Below are positions 1 to 62,810 of a DNA stretch of 64,000 bases, in pieces. The stretch is taken from assembly GCA_947564265.1 (NCBI GenBank), contig CANOBK010000005.1:66548-130547 (forward strand), given 5' to 3'. The notes under the pieces are model-generated. The model was not told the DNA's origin. It saw only the letters and a list, made by a program, of their open reading frames with translations, and did no database searches. Positions within the stretch are counted from its first letter, which is position 1. The number at the start of each line of letters is the position of its first letter. The position numbers were made by a program, and so were the translations under genes. The DNA comes from an uncultured Bacillales bacterium (GTDB lineage Bacteria > Bacillota_I > Bacilli_A > RF39 > UBA660).

Positions 1-64
1 ACTCTTATACCAGTCAGATGGTTCGAACTGCCAAAAAATTAATGGAATTAATGTAAAAATAAAA

Positions 65-96
65 AGGAAGAAACGTTTTTGATTTCTTCCTTTTTT
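65..96. terminator. Rho-independent terminator hairpin (AGGAAGAAA...TTTCTTCCT followed by a T-run) downstream of the minus-strand gene ending at 106
   Basis: inverted repeat aggaagaaa / tttcttcct with 9-nt loop, then TTTTTT. Confidence 0.5.
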
Positions 97-105
97 ATGT
101 CTTCT

Positions 106-1215
106 TTATGCACTTTGTAATCCCATTGTTTTTGAAAGAACACGATTTTGATAAGTAGATTGGTTCGTAACATCATCTAACACATGGATTTCACTTGGAA
201 TGATAATATCTCCTGTTTTTGTCATGGGCTCTACTTCCATCAAGACAAATCCATTCTCAAAAATATCGAGTCTTACATATTCATTTTGATAAAGAATGGT
301 ATATCTTGTCTTTTTAATCGAACTGCGAATTGGAGTGTTTTCTAAATAGTTTAGATACTCTTCTAGAGATAAATTCCTTTTTTGAATTAGTCTAGAAGTA
401 CCATTTTCTAACTTTTCTTGAACGGTCATTGTATAATAATGATCTTGATCCATTTCTACATTCCTAATTCTAAATTCATAAGGACTGTCTGGGTAATCTA
501 GATAAAACTGATGAATCTTAGACTTGGAACAGAGTTGCTTAAACTGAATGAATTCGACAGTGTTTGCATCAACAATATACTTTCTTTGATTTCGAAAGGC
601 AACTTGAAGATCTAAAGTTTCTAGACAAAAGTCTAAAACAGTGTTTACTTTTTCAGAGAAATCCGCCTCATTCTCTACAATCTTTAAATTGGAATGTCCA
701 CTCCAAGCTTGTAATGTTTTTTGATCCAATAGAATTGCTTCTTCCTTGCTTTCTGTTCTGGCAGTATTATTCTCTAATGTATAGATGCCATTTTCTGCAC
801 GTGCTGCGGTTACCATATGAATGACGGCATCATATCGATTCTTGAGTTCTTCTTCTTTTAAATTTCTAGAAGCAAGTAATCTCTTCCAATCTGGATAATC
901 TAAGTAAGCCTTATTATCCAAAACCCCACGGTCATATAGAATGACAACATCTCTACCAGATGCTTCTAGTAGGTTTGCAGCTTGATTATAAGTTTTTTCT
1001 TTTGCTAGTTGATAATCCAAAATGATTCCTTGAAAGTCAAGTCCATACAAAGCTTGATCTCCAAAAGGACGAACACCACCTTGTATTAATTCGGTTGCGC
1101 TTTCCGGAACAATTAATACCGCATACCCCTTTTCCAATAGATAACTTTCTAATTTGGAAAGTGCTGTTGATTTTCCTGCACAAGGACCTCCAGTTAAAAC
1201 AATTCTTTTTATCAT
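106..1215 (-). CDS. AAA_28 (NadR-like) P-loop ATPase fused to a C-terminal CYTH (triphosphate tunnel) domain
   Basis: N-terminal Walker A GGPCAGKST with NadR/AAA_28-like body; C-terminal ~170 aa has CYTH-like RKYIV start, an EFRIR motif and terminal acidic LMEVE motifs. Confidence 0.55.
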   Translation of the reverse strand: MIKRIVLTGGPCAGKSTALSKLESYLLEKGYAVLIVPESATELIQGGVRPFGDQALYGLDFQGIILDYQLAKEKTYNQAANLLEASGRDVVILYDRGVLDNKAYLDYPDWKRLLASRNLKEEELKNRYDAVIHMVTAARAENGIYTLENNTARTESKEEAILLDQKTLQAWSGHSNLKIVENEADFSEKVNTVLDFCLETLDLQVAFRNQRKYIVDANTVEFIQFKQLCSKSKIHQFYLDYPDSPYEFRIRNVEMDQDHYYTMTVQEKLENGTSRLIQKRNLSLEEYLNYLENTPIRSSIKKTRYTILYQNEYVRLDIFENGFVLMEVEPMTKTGDIIIPSEIHVLDDVTNQSTYQNRVLSKTMGLQSA

Positions 1216-1261
1216 AAAAACCCTCTCTTATTTTTAATTTTTATATTTAATTTTTCATTTT

Positions 1262-1909
1262 TTACTGACTTTGATCTGTAAGTACTAAATTTCGTATCTT
1301 TTGGTTATAAATATCATATCTCCTAACTAAATCCTGTTGTTCTTCTATGGTTGCATCTCTCATTAAATCTTTATAAAATCCACAGTTTCCGAAGACTTCT
1401 GGACATCCTCCACAGCGAACGCATTGAGGAACATTGGACCAAGCAATCACCTCACTATATTTTCTAATTTCTTCAATCACCGCCTCCCAATATTTTCTAG
1501 TGGTAGGATCTGCACACATACAAAGTCTTTTTTCAGAAATGTTGATAAGGCCTTGCAGATTTGCATCCATTTCAACAGGGATAGGATTCATTTGACTTCG
1601 CTCTTCCCTTGTTACATTCGTTCGATCCTCTCTTTCTGTTGCGACAAATTTTTCACACCCTTCGTGATGCCTTACAAAGTGAGTACTAATTGCATAAGGG
1701 ATGTTTTCCCATTTCCAACTAGTAATTCCTCTTCGTATGGGAGAATGTCTACAAATCAAGAGTTTCTTTTTCCAATCTGTATTTGGCTCTTTTCCTGCAG
1801 CTTTGTTGATGGTTGTCATGCATGCAGACTTAATTTTCATCCAATTGACATAGAAGTCTGTAATTTTTACAGTTGTATCATAATTTTTCATATTCTTCAT
1901 ATTCATCAT
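1262..1909 (-). CDS. ThyX-like (flavin-dependent thymidylate synthase fold) protein with divergent motif
   Basis: Region HSP..I.S.KWENIPYAISTHFVRHHEG resembles the ThyX core around the RHR motif, but the motif reads RHH and the catalytic Ser positions are replaced; sits next to tdk in a nucleotide cluster. Assigned from memory of ThyX sequences, not a search. Confidence 0.35.
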   Translation of the reverse strand: MMNMKNMKNYDTTVKITDFYVNWMKIKSACMTTINKAAGKEPNTDWKKKLLICRHSPIRRGITSWKWENIPYAISTHFVRHHEGCEKFVATEREDRTNVTREERSQMNPIPVEMDANLQGLINISEKRLCMCADPTTRKYWEAVIEEIRKYSEVIAWSNVPQCVRCGGCPEVFGNCGFYKDLMRDATIEEQQDLVRRYDIYNQKIRNLVLTDQSQ

Positions 1910-1911
1910 TC

Positions 1912-2469
1912 CTAATAGATTTTTTTAATTTGTTTTGTTTTGGGATCGTATTCATGAATAGAGGCATGAGTAACACCAAACCTTTCCTTGTTCATATCAA
2001 GTGGAATTCCTTCTAATTCATAATAAACAGCGTTAATGACTCCTCTATGTGTCACAATCAATGAGTAATCTTGTTCAAGAAAGACGGGAAGGTTAATTTT
2101 AATTCTTTCGTAAAATCCCTCAAGAGATTCCCCATTTGGATAAACGGTATCTATCTGAATGTTTTGAAAGAAATCACGATTTTTAGGTTCTACTTTCATT
2201 TTAAATTCTCCATTAAAGTCTCCCTTGTTCTGCTCTCTCAGTTTTTCATCATAGATGATAGGAACTGGAAATTCTTCCCCTACCATTAAAGCTGTTTCTT
2301 TGGCTCTTTCAATATCACTACTATAGATTTGTTCGAAGTGGATGGGATTGTTTTTTAAAAACTCAATTGCTCTTTTTACTTGGTTTCTTCCTTCCCAGAT
2401 TAGTTGTCCATTACTCCATCCTCCAATAAATCTTTCATCATCTAGTCCATGTCTTAAAAAATAAATCAT
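1912..2469 (-). CDS. Histidine phosphatase family protein (phosphoglycerate mutase-like)
   Basis: N-terminal LRHG motif, typical ~185 aa His-phosphatase layout; 3-nt gap to downstream ThyX-like gene. Confidence 0.7.
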   Translation of the reverse strand: MIYFLRHGLDDERFIGGWSNGQLIWEGRNQVKRAIEFLKNNPIHFEQIYSSDIERAKETALMVGEEFPVPIIYDEKLREQNKGDFNGEFKMKVEPKNRDFFQNIQIDTVYPNGESLEGFYERIKINLPVFLEQDYSLIVTHRGVINAVYYELEGIPLDMNKERFGVTHASIHEYDPKTKQIKKIY

Positions 2470-2608
2470 AAACCCTCCTAATCAAGTGTAATAAGTACAC
2501 TTATAAATTGTTAAATATAGATGAATAGTTCAACCATAATTTTATTGTGTAAAAAATACACTTATAATAGAATAAAATATGGATGAATTTCTTCATCAGT
2601 TTTTTTCA

Positions 2609-3229
2609 TTAAATTTTTTTCAAATATTGCATATTCTTTTCGGGTAAAACTACTTCCTTTAGAAAGCAATTCCCACAAAGTGGTTCGTAAGTAATATTAG
2701 CATCACTTCCATCGATGATACATTCCTCTCCACTCATCGTATAAGCTCCATTTATTTTTCTTGCATTAAATAATGCTTTTTCTCCACATTTACAAAGTGG
2801 AATAATCGGTAGCTCATTTAGTTCATCCGCAAGTTCAAAGAATCTTCGGCTCCCCTCGAATAATCTTCCTTTAAAATTCGCCCGAAGTCCAAAGCCAATG
2901 ACTTGAATATCCAGTCTTTTGGAAATAGTCCAAAGTTCTTCTACTTGCTCTTTCGTTAAAAACTGTGCTTCATCGATAATGATAGCATCCATTTCAAATA
3001 TTCGAGAAAGATTAGCATCTGATAGAAAGCTCTCGTTTTTATCAATCCATAAATCAATCTTTCTTTGTGCACCTGATCTAGAAACAATATGGTCATCCCC
3101 TTTTGTATCAATACCCGGTTTCACTACGAGTGTTCGTTGATTATTTTCTTCTAGATTATAGGCCATTGGGATTAAGATTCCACTTTTTCCTCCCTTCATA
3201 GCGCTATAAAAATAAATTAATTTTGCCAC
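2609..3229 (-). CDS. tdk: Thymidine kinase
   Basis: Walker A GGKSG, IDEAQF motif, C-terminal zinc ribbon CKCG...CGNC; length 206 aa. Confidence 0.9.
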   Translation of the reverse strand: MAKLIYFYSAMKGGKSGILIPMAYNLEENNQRTLVVKPGIDTKGDDHIVSRSGAQRKIDLWIDKNESFLSDANLSRIFEMDAIIIDEAQFLTKEQVEELWTISKRLDIQVIGFGLRANFKGRLFEGSRRFFELADELNELPIIPLCKCGEKALFNARKINGAYTMSGEECIIDGSDANITYEPLCGNCFLKEVVLPEKNMQYLKKI

Positions 3230-3238
3230 AATACCTCC

Positions 3239-3913
3239 TTAAAAAATTCTTTTTTGTTTTTTTTCTTTTCGAAAGCGATACAACTTGGCAGGTTTCTTTC
3301 CTCCAAATTTTGCGGTTTCTCCCGTGTCTTCAATTAAATCTAAGGAAAGCATCCGTTTTCGAAAATTCCTACGATCATAATTTACTCCAAGAATCGATTC
3401 ATAAACCTTTTGAATCTCTGGAAGCGTGAACTCTTTTGGAAACAGACTTTCTAGAATATCTGATTCAACGATACTTTCTTTGAGTTTTTCTAACGCATCT
3501 TGGATAATCTCTTGATGATCATAGGCAAGTGGTGGAATCTGATTAATGGCAAACCATCCTGCATTCGATGTTTTTAAAGTAGAAGTTAAAAGTTCTACTT
3601 TGAAACGATCAATGACCCCAAAATAAGAAATCCCAATCATACGCATACAAGGAGATCGATGAACTTTTCCGAAGACACTGCATTGTCTTAAGTTAGGAAT
3701 AACAAGTCCTGTTTTTTCAAGGAGCTCTCTTCTCATACCATCTTCTAAATCTTCATCATTATATAGAGCCCCACCTGGGAGTGACCACATCCCATAAAAT
3801 GGTTCATTTTTTCTCTCTACGAGTAAGATTTTTGTAATTCCATGATCGACAGTAAAGATGGCTGCCATTACATGAATCCCTTGTTTCTTATATCTCGGAT
3901 TATTGATTTCCAT
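3239..3913 (-). CDS. NUDIX hydrolase with C-terminal winged-helix domain (NrtR-like)
   Basis: Nudix box GGALYNDEDLEDGMRRELLEKTGL; ~90-aa C-terminal extension typical of NrtR-family proteins. Confidence 0.65.
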   Translation of the reverse strand: MEINNPRYKKQGIHVMAAIFTVDHGITKILLVERKNEPFYGMWSLPGGALYNDEDLEDGMRRELLEKTGLVIPNLRQCSVFGKVHRSPCMRMIGISYFGVIDRFKVELLTSTLKTSNAGWFAINQIPPLAYDHQEIIQDALEKLKESIVESDILESLFPKEFTLPEIQKVYESILGVNYDRRNFRKRMLSLDLIEDTGETAKFGGKKPAKLYRFRKEKKQKRIF

Positions 3914-4112
3914 ATCATCACCACAATTCTATTATATGTGTACCTTTTACACAAGTCAATAGTAAATTTTATAATATGACAAAATTGTAAGGAAATTCCT
4001 AGGAAAAAAAGTGGAAAAGGGTAGAAAATATGGTATACTGAATATGAATGTAAAGAATAATAGGAATAAATGTTTGTAAAAAGGATAAAACAAAATAGAA
4101 AGGGAGAGAAAC

Positions 4113-57892: not shown

Positions 57893-58846
57893 GTGATGTC
57901 GATGGACAAAGAATTTAAGAACTTAGAAGAACAGATGGCAATCCTAGAACATAAAGGTTTGATCATTCAAGATAAGGATTTTGCGCGTACCGTTTTATTG
58001 CGGGAAAATTATTTCTTTTTAAATGGGTATCGGCATTTGTTTTTAAAGTCGAAGAATGACCGAAGGTTTATTGAAGGGACTACTTTTGAGGAACTTTATA
58101 GTTTGTTTTTGTTTGATCGACAATTTAGAAATATTTTATTCAAGCATCTTTTGATTATCGAGAACAATATGAAGTCAATTATTTCATATCAATTGTCTAG
58201 GAAATATGGATATAAAGAGAGTGATTATTTAAAACCGAAAAACTTTACGAATCATCCAGAGAAATCAAGACAGGTAAACGATTTAATTAAAAAGATGAAA
58301 CGACAGGTAAGAAGTAATGCGCCACAACATGCAGCAACGATGCACTATGTAAATAATTATGGGTATATTCCTCTTTGGGTATTGGTAAAAGTATTATCTT
58401 TTGGTATTGTTAGTGAACTATTTTCCATACTAAGAAAGGAAGATCAGGAAAGTATCGCAGAAAGTTACGATATTTCTGTTGATTCTCTTACTAATTATTT
58501 ACCAATTTTGGCAAATTATCGCAATTTGTGTGCTCATGAAGATATCGTATTTGAAAATAAGACACAACGAACGGTTGAGGATACTGTTTATCACAAGTTG
58601 TTAAAGATTGAAAAAGAAAATGATGAATATGTCTATGGGAAAAATGATATCTTCGCGTTAATCTTAATTATCAAACAGTTAATTACTCCAGTAGAATTTA
58701 AAAATTTGACTGAAGAAATTAGTAGGGCTCTTTCTAATTTGGAGTACAATTTAAATACAATTACGATTGTGAAAGTATTAGATCGAATGGGATTCCCAGA
58801 AAACTGGCAGGATCTTACAAATATTACAAGGAAGGTGGAAGAATGA
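57893..58846 (+). CDS. Abi_2 family abortive-infection protein (AbiD/AbiF-like)
   Basis: N-terminus LEHKGLIIQD...ENYFFLNGYRHLF...FEELYSLFLFDRQFRNILFKHLLIIENNMKS typical of the AbiD/AbiF family. Confidence 0.7.
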   Translation: MMSMDKEFKNLEEQMAILEHKGLIIQDKDFARTVLLRENYFFLNGYRHLFLKSKNDRRFIEGTTFEELYSLFLFDRQFRNILFKHLLIIENNMKSIISYQLSRKYGYKESDYLKPKNFTNHPEKSRQVNDLIKKMKRQVRSNAPQHAATMHYVNNYGYIPLWVLVKVLSFGIVSELFSILRKEDQESIAESYDISVDSLTNYLPILANYRNLCAHEDIVFENKTQRTVEDTVYHKLLKIEKENDEYVYGKNDIFALILIIKQLITPVEFKNLTEEISRALSNLEYNLNTITIVKVLDRMGFPENWQDLTNITRKVEE

Positions 58847-59967
58847 GAGAAAGAATAGTAAAATTTTTAGGTCTACTTCTAGTAGTGGTGGTAGCAGGTG
58901 CCGGTGGTGGGTACCTAACCTATACGTTCTTAGAAGATCAAATTTCAGAAAATAATACGATTGTTGAACAGACAACCAATACGACAGGTGTTGTGAAATG
59001 TAGTAGTGATATGAAATTAGATGAGACAGGGATTGCAACTTCTGTTGGAAAAATTTATGATGCGACTGTTACGATTCAAAATTATCAAAATGGAAGATTA
59101 ACTTCTTCTGGAAGTGGATTTATCTATAAAAAAGAGGGAGAATATGCTTACGTTTTAACGAATCACCATGTGGTAGAGGATGCAACAAAGTTGTTATTGA
59201 CGTTATCAAACGATGATCAAATAGAGGGAGAAGTTCTTGGAAGCGATCCTTATTTAGATTTGGCAGTTGTTCGTATTTCTTCTGAAAAAGTATCTTTAGT
59301 CGCAGAAATTGGTACTAGTGATGATTCTAATATTGGAGATACGGTATTTACAGTAGGAACTCCAGTTGGCTATGAATATCGTGGTAGTGTAACAAAAGGA
59401 ACGTTATCAGGAAAAAATCGTATGGTAACGGTTAGTATCAACTCAACAAGTGATTGGGTAATGAATGTACTTCAAGTAGATGCGGCAATTAACCCTGGAA
59501 ATAGTGGAGGACCTCTTTTAAATGCGAATGGAGAAGTCATTGGAATTAACTCTTTGAAATTAGTAGAAGATCAAATTGAAGGAATGGGGTTTGCGATTCC
59601 AATCGAGTATGCGATGAAGTATGTAGATGACTTGGAAGCTGGTAGAGAATTAGAAAGACCATTTGTTGGAATTTCGATGTTAAATGTCAGTGATAGTTAT
59701 CGTGTATATCAATATGGAATTAGACTAGATCCAGAAATTGAAGAAGGTGTCGTTGTCACTAGTGTATCTACTGGAAGTGGGGCAGAAAAAGCAGGAATTA
59801 AAAAAGGTGATGTGATTACGGCTGTTAATGGTACCTCTGTATCAAATGCTGCTTATTTAAAATATCTGTTATACCAACATGAAGTAGGAGATACGATTGA
59901 GATTACCTATATTCGTGATCAAAAACAAAAGACAGTAGAAGTGACATTAACGAAATTGGAAGACTAA
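58843..59967 (+). CDS. htrA: HtrA/DegP-family trypsin-like serine protease with PDZ domain
   Basis: N-terminal TM helix, catalytic His (LTNHHVV) and Ser (GNSGGPL), C-terminal PDZ; ATGA start/stop overlap with the Abi_2 gene. Confidence 0.9.
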   Translation: MRERIVKFLGLLLVVVVAGAGGGYLTYTFLEDQISENNTIVEQTTNTTGVVKCSSDMKLDETGIATSVGKIYDATVTIQNYQNGRLTSSGSGFIYKKEGEYAYVLTNHHVVEDATKLLLTLSNDDQIEGEVLGSDPYLDLAVVRISSEKVSLVAEIGTSDDSNIGDTVFTVGTPVGYEYRGSVTKGTLSGKNRMVTVSINSTSDWVMNVLQVDAAINPGNSGGPLLNANGEVIGINSLKLVEDQIEGMGFAIPIEYAMKYVDDLEAGRELERPFVGISMLNVSDSYRVYQYGIRLDPEIEEGVVVTSVSTGSGAEKAGIKKGDVITAVNGTSVSNAAYLKYLLYQHEVGDTIEITYIRDQKQKTVEVTLTKLED

Positions 59968-60235: not shown

Positions 60236-60266
60236 ACGTCCGGATGAACAACTGGACGTCTTTTTT
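60236..60266. terminator. Bidirectional rho-independent terminator (ACGTCC-N12-GGACGT plus T-run) between the htrA operon and the convergent peptide gene
   Basis: Hairpin plus TTTTTT seen in sequence. Confidence 0.55.
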
Positions 60267-60293: not shown

Positions 60294-60530
60294 CTAGCAG
60301 GCTCCACAAGCGCCACAAGGTCCTTTAATACTTTTCTTTTTTATTAGTTGATTTGGTACAGATGAAGTTGATTTTTCTTCTTGCTTTTCTTTCTGCTCAA
60401 AATCAGAACCTCCGCAAGCACCACAAGCAGCACATGGTCCAAAAATTCCTTTTCCACTGACGATTGAGTATACACTCAAGGGTAATTTTCCATTTTTATT
60501 TAATTTACTCAAAGCATACTCGATATCCAT
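60294..60530 (-). CDS. Cys-rich RiPP precursor-like peptide (78 aa) with two GPC(A/G)ACGAC repeats
   Basis: GGAGGA RBS 7 nt upstream; leader-like N-terminal half; core contains GPCAACGACGG and, at the C-terminus, GPCGACGAC; immediately downstream of a radical-SAM/SPASM gene on the same strand. Confidence 0.65.
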   Translation of the reverse strand: MDIEYALSKLNKNGKLPLSVYSIVSGKGIFGPCAACGACGGSDFEQKEKQEEKSTSSVPNQLIKKKSIKGPCGACGAC

Positions 60531-60571
60531 AAAATCATCCTCCCCTTCTAATAGGCATAATATAGTATTTC

Positions 60572-61633
60572 TTAATTTTTGTCAATTTTATCATTTGGAT
60601 GAATTGCATTTGAATCTAATAATTCATTAAAATTAAAATGATACCAATTAGATAAACATCCACCGCCACATACAGTATCATCTTTACATTTAGAACAAAT
60701 ATCATCAGGTAGTGCACATAATTTATTATATATTTTCATCATAGAATCTGATTCCCAATATTGATAAAAAGTCTCAGAATCCTTAAAATCTTTATTAAAA
60801 GTTCCTAGTTTTACTTGATGGATAGAATTACAAGGAATTAAACTACCATCCGTATCAAAAACCAATCCAGTTCTTTGCAATAGCATACAGGATGTTTGTA
60901 TTTGATCTTGTTTTCTCATCTTATTAATTATTTCCTCATTCCAAGCACATAAAGGTAAGGTTTGATGGAGCGTAAAATTTCCTTTTGTTAATTCATCTAT
61001 TTTACTATATTGATTTTCAAAGCTTTTAACTATTTTCATTAACGTTTTTACATCATACGTTTTTTCTATTCCATCAAGAACAGAAAAATCATTTTCAAAT
61101 GAAAAGAAGAAATTGTCGATACCACAACTTGTAACTAATTCAATCACATCGGTAATCTTTTCACAATTTTCATCACTGATTACAAATGATGCCATCGTAT
61201 TAATTTTGGATTTTGATAAGTTTTTTAGTGCTTCTAACATTTGATTATAGGAATCTACTCCTGTATTGTTTTTATAACTTTCTCTTGACCACCCTTTGAT
61301 TGAAAAGTTAATATCATCGACCCCTAATTTTTCTAATTTACTTAAATATCGTGGATCACTAAATAAAATTCCATTTGTTATTAAACATACTTTCATATTT
61401 TTGTTTTTAATATATTGAATTAAATTCTCTAATTCATGATAACAAGTTGGTTCTCCTCCAATTAAGGCAACTTCTTCTATGCCCAATTCTTTAAAAAATT
61501 CAACTATATTTTTAGCAAGATTGATATCCATACTGAAACGATAGTCAAATTTCTTTCCTTTTGCATAACACCATTTACATCTTAGGTTACAATTTCTGTT
61601 AATGGTTAACCAAACATTTTGTATCTTTTTCAT
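60572..61633 (-). CDS. Radical SAM enzyme with C-terminal SPASM/twitch-like Cys-rich domain (peptide-modifying maturase)
   Basis: CNLRCKWC (CxxxCxxC) near the N-terminus; C-terminal cysteines CAW...SCM...PCN...CALPDDICSKCKDDTVCGGGC consistent with auxiliary Fe-S clusters. Confidence 0.8.
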   Translation of the reverse strand: MKKIQNVWLTINRNCNLRCKWCYAKGKKFDYRFSMDINLAKNIVEFFKELGIEEVALIGGEPTCYHELENLIQYIKNKNMKVCLITNGILFSDPRYLSKLEKLGVDDINFSIKGWSRESYKNNTGVDSYNQMLEALKNLSKSKINTMASFVISDENCEKITDVIELVTSCGIDNFFFSFENDFSVLDGIEKTYDVKTLMKIVKSFENQYSKIDELTKGNFTLHQTLPLCAWNEEIINKMRKQDQIQTSCMLLQRTGLVFDTDGSLIPCNSIHQVKLGTFNKDFKDSETFYQYWESDSMMKIYNKLCALPDDICSKCKDDTVCGGGCLSNWYHFNFNELLDSNAIHPNDKIDKN

Positions 61634-61958
61634 ATAGTACCTCTCATCTTAAATATAACGTATAATATATGGCACATGTGGATCGTTTTTTCTTTTTATT
61701 TTATGTATTGAAAGTCCAATGATTACGATTTAGTACTTTGATTTTGGTTGAAGATTTCATCCATTGACTGGATGATTCTTTTGAATATTTAGCCTTACTA
61801 AGGTTCTTATAAATTGAGATTATTATACACTAAAATTTATTCCCATTCAATCTGTTGGAAAACAAAATTTAAAAATAGGAATTGTATTTTCTTATTCATT
61901 GTACTTGCATCATTCTAAAAGTTTTTGTAAAATAATTAGAAATGAAGAGGGAGTATCT

Positions 61959-62810
61959 ATGGAGAAGTATCGAGAAATTGAAAATAGTTTGATTACAAAG
62001 TATCGAAAATCCATCTGGTCTAAGTTTGTCAAAGGAACCAAAGAATTTGAGATGATTGAGGAAAATGATAAAATTGCCGTATGTATGTCTGGTGGGAAAG
62101 ATAGTTTTGTTTTAGCAAAGTGTATGCAGGAGATAAAACTCCATGGAAAGATCCCTTTTGATTTGGTATTTCTAGTGATGGATCCAGGATATACAAAGGA
62201 AAATAGAAAACAGATTGAAGACAATGCAAAGTTGATGAATATTCCAATTACGATTTTTGAATCTGATATTTTTCAAGTAGTAGAGGATGTGACAATGTCT
62301 CCTTGTTATTTATGCGCCAGAATGAGACGTGGATGTCTTTATAATAAGGCAAAGGAACTTGGGTGTAATAAGATTGCCTTAGGTCATCACTATGACGATG
62401 TAATGGAAACGATTTTAATGAGTCTTCTCTATGGGGGAGAATATAAGACGATGATGCCCAAACTTCACAGTACAAATTTTGAAGGAATGGAATTAATTCG
62501 CCCGATGTATTATGTAAGGGAACAAGATATTATTGCATTTTCCAAGTTCCATGGATTAAAGTTTTTGAATTGTGCCTGTAAGTTCACGGAAAGGAATCAT
62601 GATGAGAATCTAAACAGCAAAAGACTATTTGTGAAAAACTTAATTAAGGAATTAAAACAAGATAATGCCAATATTGAAAATAATATTTTTAAAAGTGCTT
62701 TTAATGTGAATCTAGATACATTGATTGGATATAAAAGTAAGGATATGGTATATCAATTCTTAGATGATTATAAAGAGAAAAAAGAAATTAAAAAACAAGA
62801 AGGAGAGTAG
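61959..62810 (+). CDS. ttcA: TtcA-family PP-loop ATPase (tRNA 2-thiocytidine synthase-like)
   Basis: PP-loop SGGKDS; CxxC motifs (SPCYLCARMRRG, NCACKF); start at MEKYREIE with GAGGGAG RBS. Confidence 0.7.
   Translation: MEKYREIENSLITKYRKSIWSKFVKGTKEFEMIEENDKIAVCMSGGKDSFVLAKCMQEIKLHGKIPFDLVFLVMDPGYTKENRKQIEDNAKLMNIPITIFESDIFQVVEDVTMSPCYLCARMRRGCLYNKAKELGCNKIALGHHYDDVMETILMSLLYGGEYKTMMPKLHSTNFEGMELIRPMYYVREQDIIAFSKFHGLKFLNCACKFTERNHDENLNSKRLFVKNLIKELKQDNANIENNIFKSAFNVNLDTLIGYKSKDMVYQFLDDYKEKKEIKKQEGE

Follow-up and report, generated by a model that had tools for sequence, protein, structure and literature searches.

We analyzed a 64,000-nucleotide stretch of DNA (referred to here as the window; G+C content, 31.8%) from an uncultured Bacillales bacterium and found that two neighboring reverse-strand genes, one for an enzyme of the radical S-adenosylmethionine (SAM) type, the other for a small cysteine-rich peptide, very probably constitute a conserved pair of an enzyme and its peptide substrate. 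Our data indicate that this pair is no isolated oddity but belongs to a large family that is widespread and unnamed. The overall reading that we favor, and to which we give about an even chance, is that the enzyme is a leader-guided peptide maturase that acts on a cysteine core and forms thioethers. The original prediction, made from the letters of the window, had proposed a radical SAM-matured peptide arrangement. That proposal is supported by a SPASM domain model that the enzyme passes, by the conservation of the pairing, and by look-ups started from the peptides, which return the enzyme. Its coordinates for both genes were exact. The features of the pair are as follows.

60572..61633, reverse strand: gene for a radical SAM/SPASM-type enzyme of 353 amino acids, a putative peptide maturase.
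61568..61591, reverse strand: CX3CX2C motif CNLRCKWC (C15, C19, and C22; residues 15-22), predicted to bind the SAM-cleaving [4Fe-4S] cluster; invariant in 55 of 55 homologues.
60656..60949, reverse strand: SPASM-type auxiliary-cluster region, C229 ... C249-X13-G-X4-C268 ... C313-X2-C316-X5-C322-X3-C326, assigned from conservation, the TIGR04085 model, and a hidden Markov model alignment to CteB.
60294..60530, reverse strand: precursor peptide gene, 78 amino acids plus stop codon, taken from the list of open reading frames (ORFs).
60539..60543, reverse strand: Shine-Dalgarno sequence GGAGG, 8 nucleotides upstream of the peptide ATG (the upstream region reads ...AGAAGGGGAGGATGATTTT-ATG), which is the strong ribosome-binding site that had been predicted.
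60441..60530, reverse strand: leader region, residues 1-30 (MDIEYALSKLNKNGKLPL...), with the family motif M-x-I-E-x-A-L-x-L-L-K-K-x-G.
60414..60440, reverse strand: core module 1, GPCAACGAC.
60324..60413, reverse strand: spacer rich in Lys, Glu, and Ser, residues 40-69, variable among relatives.
60297..60323, reverse strand: core module 2, GPCGACGAC, at the C-terminus.

The peptide gene lies 3' of the enzyme gene on the same strand, with a gap of 41 nucleotides between them, and encodes the peptide MDIEYALSKLNKNGKLPLSVYSIVSGKGIFGPCAACGACGGSDFEQKEKQEEKSTSSVPNQLIKKKSIKGPCGACGAC. Twin GPC(A/G)ACGAC modules, a Lys/Glu-rich spacer, and a GPCGACGAC end had been predicted; both modules were located, with the stop codon directly after the second. 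A degenerate DNA pattern for C-x-A-C-G-A-C has two sites only in the 64 kb of the window, while none is expected (100 shuffles). Four of the nine codons differ between module 1 and module 2 and three of these four differences are synonymous, which argues that selection on the protein keeps the repeat. A relative with 99% identity (L085; GCA_948932945.1) encodes the identical peptide despite four nucleotide differences, each of them synonymous, and there the ORF has been annotated as a gene. A single-sequence search with the 78-amino-acid peptide returned no matches, and NCBIfam and Pfam contain no family for seven peptides drawn from four clades. The peptide had been placed outside the named classes, and this holds for NCBIfam, Pfam, and the searchable literature; literature searches returned no description of the enzyme-peptide family, while subscription-only genome-mining atlases, which lay outside the search, may list it as an uncharacterized cluster.

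The enzyme belongs to the radical SAM superfamily (PF04055, 97.9 against a gathering threshold of 29.5 for the full-length protein). Pfam PF13353 is the one other model that the full-length protein passes, and both models are generic. A GGE motif (G59, G60, and E61) is invariant across the 55 homologues, as is the CX3CX2C motif; because the latter begins at residue 15, the enzyme has no N-terminal RRE domain, the recognition element of enzymes for peptides that are made on the ribosome and then modified post-translationally (RiPPs). A C-terminal cluster of at least seven cysteines had been predicted. We found eight in the last third of the protein (C229, C249, C268, C305, C313, C316, C322, and C326), and seven of these (all except C305) are invariant or at least 98% conserved among the homologues. 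The C-terminal 129 amino acids alone pass the SPASM domain model TIGR04085 (38.3 bits versus a cutoff of 27). Of the two SPASM models that had been suggested for a search, the enzyme therefore answers to this one; PF13186 gives no match to the window enzyme and matches only 12 of the 55 members, weakly. Ten of the 11 other weak matches of the C-terminal domain are peptide maturases or SPASM partners (DynA, ScmE, YhhB, FibroRumin, PapB, TIGR04083, ScfB-like, GeoRSP, SCIFF, and GrrM), and the eleventh is an unrelated protein of integrative and conjugative elements (E 0.027).

The full seven-cysteine SPASM motif is CX9-15GX4C-gap-CX2CX5CX3C-gap-C. The window enzyme departs from it in that no conserved cysteine follows C326 (12 of the 55 members carry an unaligned tail cysteine) and in that C229 is an extra invariant cysteine upstream of the SPASM-type CX13GX4C. 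Since seven conserved cysteine ligands are available for two auxiliary clusters, one coordination site would be open or filled by something other than cysteine. We infer that one auxiliary [4Fe-4S] cluster has this open or non-cysteine site and only three conserved protein cysteine ligands. A structure predicted from the 55 homologues (mean predicted local distance difference test score, 94.2) matched SuiB with a Foldseek template modeling score of 0.71 and anaerobic sulfatase-maturating enzymes (anSMEs) with scores of 0.66-0.68, and the modeled fold is of the SPASM/Twitch type. The nearest solved proteins by sequence profile are SkfB, CteB, Tes, SuiB, and PqqE.

We asked whether the enzyme belongs to a curated family. 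Within NCBIfam, no family cutoff is reached by the window enzyme, which passes only the domain model TIGR04085; four homologues from other clades likewise fall below every family cutoff. Scores of the window enzyme against the respective cutoffs were 100.6/325 (MoaA), 89.8/380 (tungsten-cofactor maturase), 81.5/515 (NirJ), 74/400 (ScmE), 71.4/625 (StsB), 69.3/340 (PapB), and 58.8/400 (GeoRSP). These scores bear on the possibility that the window holds an ordinary housekeeping enzyme (MoaA, anSME, or a heme/NirJ-type enzyme) next to a chance ORF of 78 amino acids. MoaA models do give the top bit scores, through the shared radical SAM core, but the alignment is confined to the N-terminal core, the enzyme lacks PF06463 (Mob_synth_C), and true MoaA proteins (GTP 3',8-cyclases) appear only beyond the family boundary, at E >= 1e-13 in the homology search described below. 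NirJ/AhbD and tungsten-cofactor maturase identities were rejected on scores far below cutoff and an unfitting gene context. The anSME model (TIGR03942) does not appear among the 25 NCBIfam models that the window enzyme matches best and gives 53-55 bits, against a cutoff of 349, on two members from the Candidate Phyla Radiation (CPR; L035 and L043). No sulfatase gene is present within approximately 8 kb downstream or 2.4 kb upstream (to the window end), and no molybdopterin genes adjoin the pair in the window. The original prediction would have been abandoned had the enzyme fallen into a non-peptide family; MoaA, NirJ/AhbD, tungsten-cofactor maturase, and anSME are all far below their cutoffs. 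A PADLOC scan for anti-phage defense systems gave only partial matches of the enzyme to pVip (residues 9-170, 61-64 bits; PADLOC offers no curated cutoff), which probably reflect generic similarity of the radical SAM core, given that pVip, too, belongs to the radical SAM enzymes.

We found that the boundary of the enzyme family is sharp when judged by homology: a search returned 59 clusters with E values from 1e-238 to 1e-35, while the next matches, generic radical SAM proteins, begin at 1e-16. A profile search of 1.84 billion representatives returned 870 at E <= 1e-30, counted as 50%-identity clusters. We analyzed 59 full-length loci (one genome per species) from Lachnospiraceae, Erysipelotrichaceae, uncultured 'Mollicutes', Clostridia, many Patescibacteria, and a few others; carriers include the cultured Pumilibacter muris. 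At approximately 50 of these loci, the enzyme gene is flanked on its own strand by a small ORF that has a good ribosome-binding site and encodes a C-terminal core rich in cysteine, so the small ORF is conserved next to homologous enzymes, the absence of which the original prediction had named as grounds for giving up the pair. Stretches with at least five cysteines in 20 amino acids were adjacent on the same strand at 31 of 59 loci, compared to 0 of 59 on the mirror strand and 2 of 55 in a far control; at six or more cysteines, the counts were 23, 0, and 0. Peptides with strong ribosome-binding sites were recorded at 44 loci, a few of them chance ORFs, and others were found by eye. A profile of 12 peptides, searched against 5.8 billion proteins, recovered approximately 28 further clusters at E <= 1e-3, none with a name or a Pfam domain. 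Reverse look-ups that started from peptides returned cassettes of a DUF4760 gene, a peptide gene, and a radical SAM gene in three of three cases. Together with the synonymous-only changes and the strong ribosome-binding site, dozens of peptide homologues beside homologous enzymes speak against a chance ORF, and we consider a chance ORF or a housekeeping enzyme to be excluded for practical purposes.

Core type tracks enzyme clade. Where enzyme identity to the window enzyme is highest (81, 65, and 60%), the peptide is encoded downstream and contains one or two C-x-A-C-G-A-C modules, the last one at the protein end. At 42-50% identity the peptide is encoded upstream and its core is CGACGAC or (CGA)n, while at 33-41% identity it may be upstream or downstream and its core is rich in Cys and Asp (e.g., CDCDCDYDC). 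Patescibacteria loci encode downstream peptides with short cores (e.g., ICDCCGDGNDCCGFN, CQCDCSEC, or ICDCDPDE). A leader motif, M-x-I-E-x-A-L-x-L-L-K-K-x-G, is nonetheless common to upstream- and downstream-placed peptides of close relatives (alignment A2, where L10 and K12 never vary and M1 hardly does), and Patescibacteria leaders contain a similar L-x-K-x-G element (e.g., MEKLIKGLKKNGD...). The commonest peptide form is 43-44 amino acids long and ends GAPCGACGAC-COOH, with a variable region between leader and core; a one-module example is the L087 peptide, MNIEKSLELLKKHGEIPKEEYHSINSNIQKGNHGAPCGACGAC. Module 2 of the window peptide is the counterpart of this single core. Since the usual precursor has one module, the window peptide is a duplicated two-module variant. 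This corrects the earlier view of the twin repeats, which had been taken to suggest two modification modules. In the L001 peptide, the first module has decayed and the C-terminal module is kept.

Several precursors depart further from the common form. Two Erysipelotrichaceae loci, L013 (100-273 and 1348-1527) and L025 (4812-4973 and 6046-6213), contain two different Cys/Asp-rich precursor genes that flank the radical SAM gene, and both precursors carry an F-(I/L)-N-K leader motif. Precursors of 103-114 amino acids, consisting almost entirely of Cys/Asp/Asn repeats with more than 25 cysteines, are encoded at L011 (4637-4981), L017 (6200-6544), L029 (5954-6265), and L054 (5953-6264); in L029 and L054 the precursor gene overlaps the end of the radical SAM gene.

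The small gene lies beside the enzyme gene and varies along with it, and its product joins a conserved leader to a C-terminal core, as in a RiPP system; this bears on whether the small protein could instead be a miniature Fe-S or metal-binding partner (an electron donor or cluster carrier) of an enzyme that acts on another molecule. The sequence C-x-x-C-G-A-C does agree with the ferredoxin motif of clostridia, CxxCGxCxxxCP, at its first three ligands, the L001 pair lies directly after a SUF Fe-S assembly operon, and the window pair lies beside a gene resembling ttcA, whose product is an Fe-S enzyme. However, the peptides have no fourth cysteine and no CP motif; one-module forms contain three cysteines only, minimal CPR forms contain two or three, and the cores of other clades (CDCDC, ICDCCGxGxxCC) are unlike ferredoxin. 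The SUF adjacency occurs at one locus only, and the conserved N-terminal leader, variable linker, and C-terminal core are those of a RiPP precursor. We therefore regard an Fe-S partner as highly improbable and return to the reading in which the peptide is the substrate.

The layout of the pair resembles that of SCIFF-type two-gene systems, and its repeat logic that of ACGX and other TIGRFAM/NCBIfam cysteine-repeat systems. SCIFF/ranthipeptide systems (TIGR03973 and TIGR03974; CteB and Tte1186; PapB, NF047865) also consist of one radical SAM/SPASM enzyme and one small cysteine-rich peptide, with a conserved core, no exporter or protease, and a distribution in Clostridia-type genomes. The CX2CX5CX3C motif of the window enzyme aligns to that of CteB, and the PapB model aligns across the whole window enzyme, which is of similar length. 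In contrast, the PapB score is far below cutoff, and TIGR03974 gives 53.6 against 425 (L006) and 13 bits on the window C-terminal domain. CteB has an N-terminal RRE that the window enzyme lacks (matches start near CteB residue 96), and the final SPASM cysteine is missing in the window enzyme. The window peptide has its own leader, matches no SCIFF model, and presents a cysteine at every third position of a Gly/Ala core without the Asp, Glu, Thr, and Asn acceptors typical of ranthipeptides.

ACGX-repeat peptides consist of short repeats containing Ala-Cys-Gly. The ACGX system (radical SAM enzyme TIGR04340, peptide TIGR04341) likewise pairs a SPASM enzyme of approximately 340 amino acids that has no RRE with a repeat peptide, and TIGR04340 aligns over the full length of the L006 member. 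It scores only 51.7 against 400 there, however, and is outside the best 25 matches of the window enzyme; none of the seven peptides hits NCBIfam, and the repeat period is three here (C-G-A) versus four. For the sactipeptide maturases (SkfB, TIGR04403; AlbA; StsB, NF045574), the match is confined to the radical SAM core; SkfB reaches 42 against 300 (L025) and is outside the best 25 matches of the window enzyme, and StsB falls far short of its cutoff of 625. Sactipeptides carry cysteine donors and acceptors in separate hairpin halves, whereas the common precursor here has a single seven-residue core. The window enzyme also differs from anSME in that the eighth auxiliary-cluster cysteine is absent and in that its partner is a dedicated small peptide.

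Thioethers are the outcome for most characterized radical SAM/SPASM enzymes encoded beside cysteine-rich peptides. By analogy with these, we consider thioether formation specifically to be somewhat short of an even chance, yet the most probable of the chemistries considered here. In the mechanism that we infer from characterized relatives, the leader (MDIEYALSKLNKNG...) would be recognized by the 353-amino-acid enzyme, and the cysteine-every-third core modules (GPCxACGAC) would be the modification sites. The CX3CX2C cluster would reductively cleave SAM, and the 5'-deoxyadenosyl radical would take a hydrogen from a core carbon. In the window clade, the hydrogen would come from C-alpha of the Gly or Ala that separates cysteines; in the Cys/Asp-rich clades, it would come from a carbon in the side chain of an Asp, Asn, or Glu. 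A core cysteine thiolate, held on the auxiliary [4Fe-4S] cluster with three conserved cysteine ligands, would capture the carbon radical to form an S-C thioether, and repetition of the cycle for each cysteine would give a compact cross-linked product. A substrate Cys or selenocysteine binds the auxiliary cluster directly in the thioether formers PapB and Tte1186 (PMC10177961).

Several observations weigh against this thioether reading. The window-clade core holds only Gly, Ala, and Pro between its cysteines, and thioether rings would be very small unless the two modules cross-link to one another, yet one-module precursors are the norm. The absence of an RRE domain leaves the mode of leader recognition unexplained, as the absence of a protease or exporter from the Firmicutes cassettes does the release of a mature product, and approximately 6-9 of the 59 loci are without a convincing adjacent peptide.

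The main rival to thioether formation is oxidation at the cysteine beta-carbon in the manner of anSME or SbtM, which would give thiooxazoles, formylglycine, or other oxidized forms and a metal-binding peptide rich in thiols and heterocycles (a metallophore or metal buffer). SbtM, the enzyme of the GeoRSP system (TIGR04303), is a SPASM enzyme of approximately 325 amino acids without an RRE that turns a conserved Gly-Cys motif into a thio(seleno)oxazole, with hydrogen abstracted from the cysteine C-beta, and its auxiliary cluster has been proposed to bind the substrate cysteine (PMC9204691). As would also be the case in the window, a short SPASM enzyme without an RRE acts there on a cysteine next to a small residue, and the GeoRSP model aligns along the full window enzyme, albeit weakly (59 bits). 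The cores in all clades look metallothionein-like, with CxC and CxxC spaced by Gly, Ala, Asp, and Asn and few hydrophobic residues. Since the thiooxazole route needs just a small residue before the cysteine, one-module and minimal cores (ICDCDPDE) could be substrates. On the other hand, the GeoRSP score is far below its cutoff and anSME is not among the best 25 matches of the enzyme. The peptides contain no selenocysteine and belong to a different family with a different taxonomic range, and no GeoRSP partner proteins were noted in the neighborhoods examined. Metal-related genes are not consistently adjacent in the neighborhoods of the loci examined. In addition, a conserved Asn (N269) follows the second SPASM cysteine, at a position that we take, by motif alignment only, to be equivalent to that of the proposed catalytic Asp of anSME. 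We consider cysteine oxidation unlikely, although less so than the further alternatives discussed below, and a thioether-forming maturase remains our preferred reading.

The distribution of the cassette bears on what its product may do. It is found in very small genomes (Patescibacteria, RF39-like 'Mollicutes', and Erysipelotrichaceae), which argues for a housekeeping role, while its patchy distribution and the cassettes that lie beside recombinases or a prophage lysis module suggest an accessory function. One possibility is that the peptide serves as a sacrificial scaffold on which a small cofactor or signal comparable to mycofactocin or pyrroloquinoline quinone (PQQ) is made from the C-terminal CGACGAC, to be excised by a protease encoded elsewhere. 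The small genomes would suit such a role, as would a core that is nearly invariant and exactly C-terminal in most Firmicutes precursors while the leader-core linker varies. MftC and PqqE, likewise SPASM enzymes, are comparable in size, and the mycofactocin model matches family members over their full length, although weakly. The patchy distribution and the recombinase and lysis-module neighbors argue the other way. So does the lack of partner enzymes (dehydrogenases, glycosyltransferases, or a PqqD-like chaperone), most cassettes having two or three genes, and the cores of other clades are long, repetitive, and length-variable (up to 114 amino acids of Cys/Asp repeats) and thus unfit for a single cofactor. 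We consider a cofactor scaffold improbable, if less so than the Fe-S partner. Given a near-invariant core and the lack of an exporter, immunity gene, or peptidase in Firmicutes cassettes, the maturase product is more likely to serve a conserved physiological function, of the sort suggested for SCIFF-type peptides, than to be an arms-race bacteriocin.

A bolder reading, which we regard as doubtful and slightly less probable than cysteine oxidation, is that the family makes a previously unseen, broadly conserved class of cysteine-derived product that is intracellular and metal-binding, redox-active, or cofactor-like rather than antibiotic. The product would be a poly-modified peptide, cysteine-every-third in Firmicutes or Cys/Asp-rich in Erysipelotrichaceae, RF39-like bacteria, and Patescibacteria, formed by cysteine chemistry new for radical SAM enzymes (e.g., several heterocycles or S-C links within CGACGAC-COOH). 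If so, its occurrence in candidate-phyla bacteria with minimal genomes would indicate that it meets a basic need of the cell's physiology.

Radical SAM/SPASM-peptide pairs have yielded new chemistry, including sactionine, ranthionine, thiooxazole, and cyclophane formation and mycofactocin. The family described here spans gut Firmicutes and minimal-genome Patescibacteria, comprises approximately 870 clusters at 50% identity, and has no curated model. The system is not conceptually unprecedented, as cysteine-rich peptides modified by radical SAM/SPASM enzymes are already known. A thioether product would be a compact new scaffold, while a metal-binding or cofactor-like product would bear on the handling of metal and redox stress in reduced-genome and gut anaerobes. 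Because the core CGACGAC-COOH is very short and invariant, the range of possible products is limited and their assignment by mass spectrometry should be easy. With two genes, a substrate of 43-78 amino acids, and a cultured carrier, the question is directly testable.

The surroundings of the pair in the window contain the following features.

57893-58846, forward strand: homologue of the abortive-infection protein AbiD/Abi_2 (PADLOC AbiD, E 5e-62).
58843-59967, forward strand: HtrA-like protease gene, convergent with the peptide gene.
60236..60259, no strand assigned: GC-rich hairpin located where the htrA-like and peptide genes converge; both strands carry T-rich tracts.
60557..60585, reverse strand: promoter-like site TTGACA-17-TATTAT, with 11 of 12 matches to a sigma-70-type consensus, within the 3' end of the radical SAM gene and a short way upstream of the peptide gene.
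61899-62810, forward strand: PP-loop (TtcA-like) ATPase gene, divergent from the radical SAM gene.

The HtrA-like and TtcA-like neighbors are as the original prediction described them, and, again in agreement with it, no transporter or immunity gene adjoins the pair in the window, nor does a peptidase gene. The hairpin is likely a bidirectional terminator that closes the two-gene cassette. The promoter-like site, found by consensus scan only, could be the peptide gene's own promoter and could allow the precursor to be expressed well above the enzyme. Farther out lie genes for AbiD, for a Zn phospholipase C, for the sporulation protein SpoIID, and for HtpG; the presence of a sporulation gene and the G+C content of 31.8% mark the window as Firmicute DNA. 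The stop codon of the AbiD gene overlaps the start of the HtrA-like protease gene (58843), which suggests that a defense gene and a housekeeping protease gene are co-transcribed.

Besides the peptide, only two partners recur beside the enzyme gene across the loci: DUF4760 and a CPR Zn-peptidase-like gene. In Lachnospiraceae-type cassettes (L087, L088, L089-L093, L006-L008, and L012), DUF4760 is a third gene directly upstream of the peptide gene and encodes a protein of approximately 166-210 amino acids with a hydrophobic N-terminus (e.g., L087, 2367-2867). It was searched for and is absent from the window and window-type loci; it has no PADLOC match, and the literature that could be searched mentions this uncharacterized family just once, in passing. 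In 16 Patescibacteria/CPR loci, a small putative Zn peptidase with weak DUF5700/M76 matches is encoded directly after the peptide gene (L036, 3395-3931; L043, 1603-2217; L035, 5579-5992; and 13 others). This protein is a candidate leader peptidase, and Firmicutes cassettes have no counterpart. Groupings with a UvrD/PcrA helicase and with a histidine kinase look like lineage synteny and were rejected as functional partners. Five homologues (P0053, P0136, P0173, P0189, and P0220) are 560-587 amino acids long and carry a C-terminal extension of approximately 220 amino acids. We considered whether these extensions might be substrates or partners fused to the enzyme and rejected this, as they lack any Pfam match and those of P0053, P0136, and P0173 are heterogeneous and not cysteine-rich. 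The extensions may be true fusions or artifacts of gene calling.

Individual loci showed further neighbors. In L089 and L090 (1387-4708), the DUF4760-peptide-radical SAM cassette is immediately preceded by the SPP1-type holin and M15 endolysin genes of a prophage lysis module, a position where prophage cargo genes usually sit; the enzyme family is nonetheless almost absent from phage collections. Phage or prophage cargo was rejected as a general feature, with one full-length member in IMG/VR and none in GenBank phages. Large serine recombinase genes lie upstream in L002 and L088. In L001 (81% identity; 1-3696), the SUF operon (sufB/D, sufS, and sufU) is directly upstream on the same strand. 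In L002 (65% identity; 2227-3918), the gene immediately upstream of the radical SAM gene encodes a 563-amino-acid protein without a Pfam match; it has no window counterpart and is kept in a second contig, L003.

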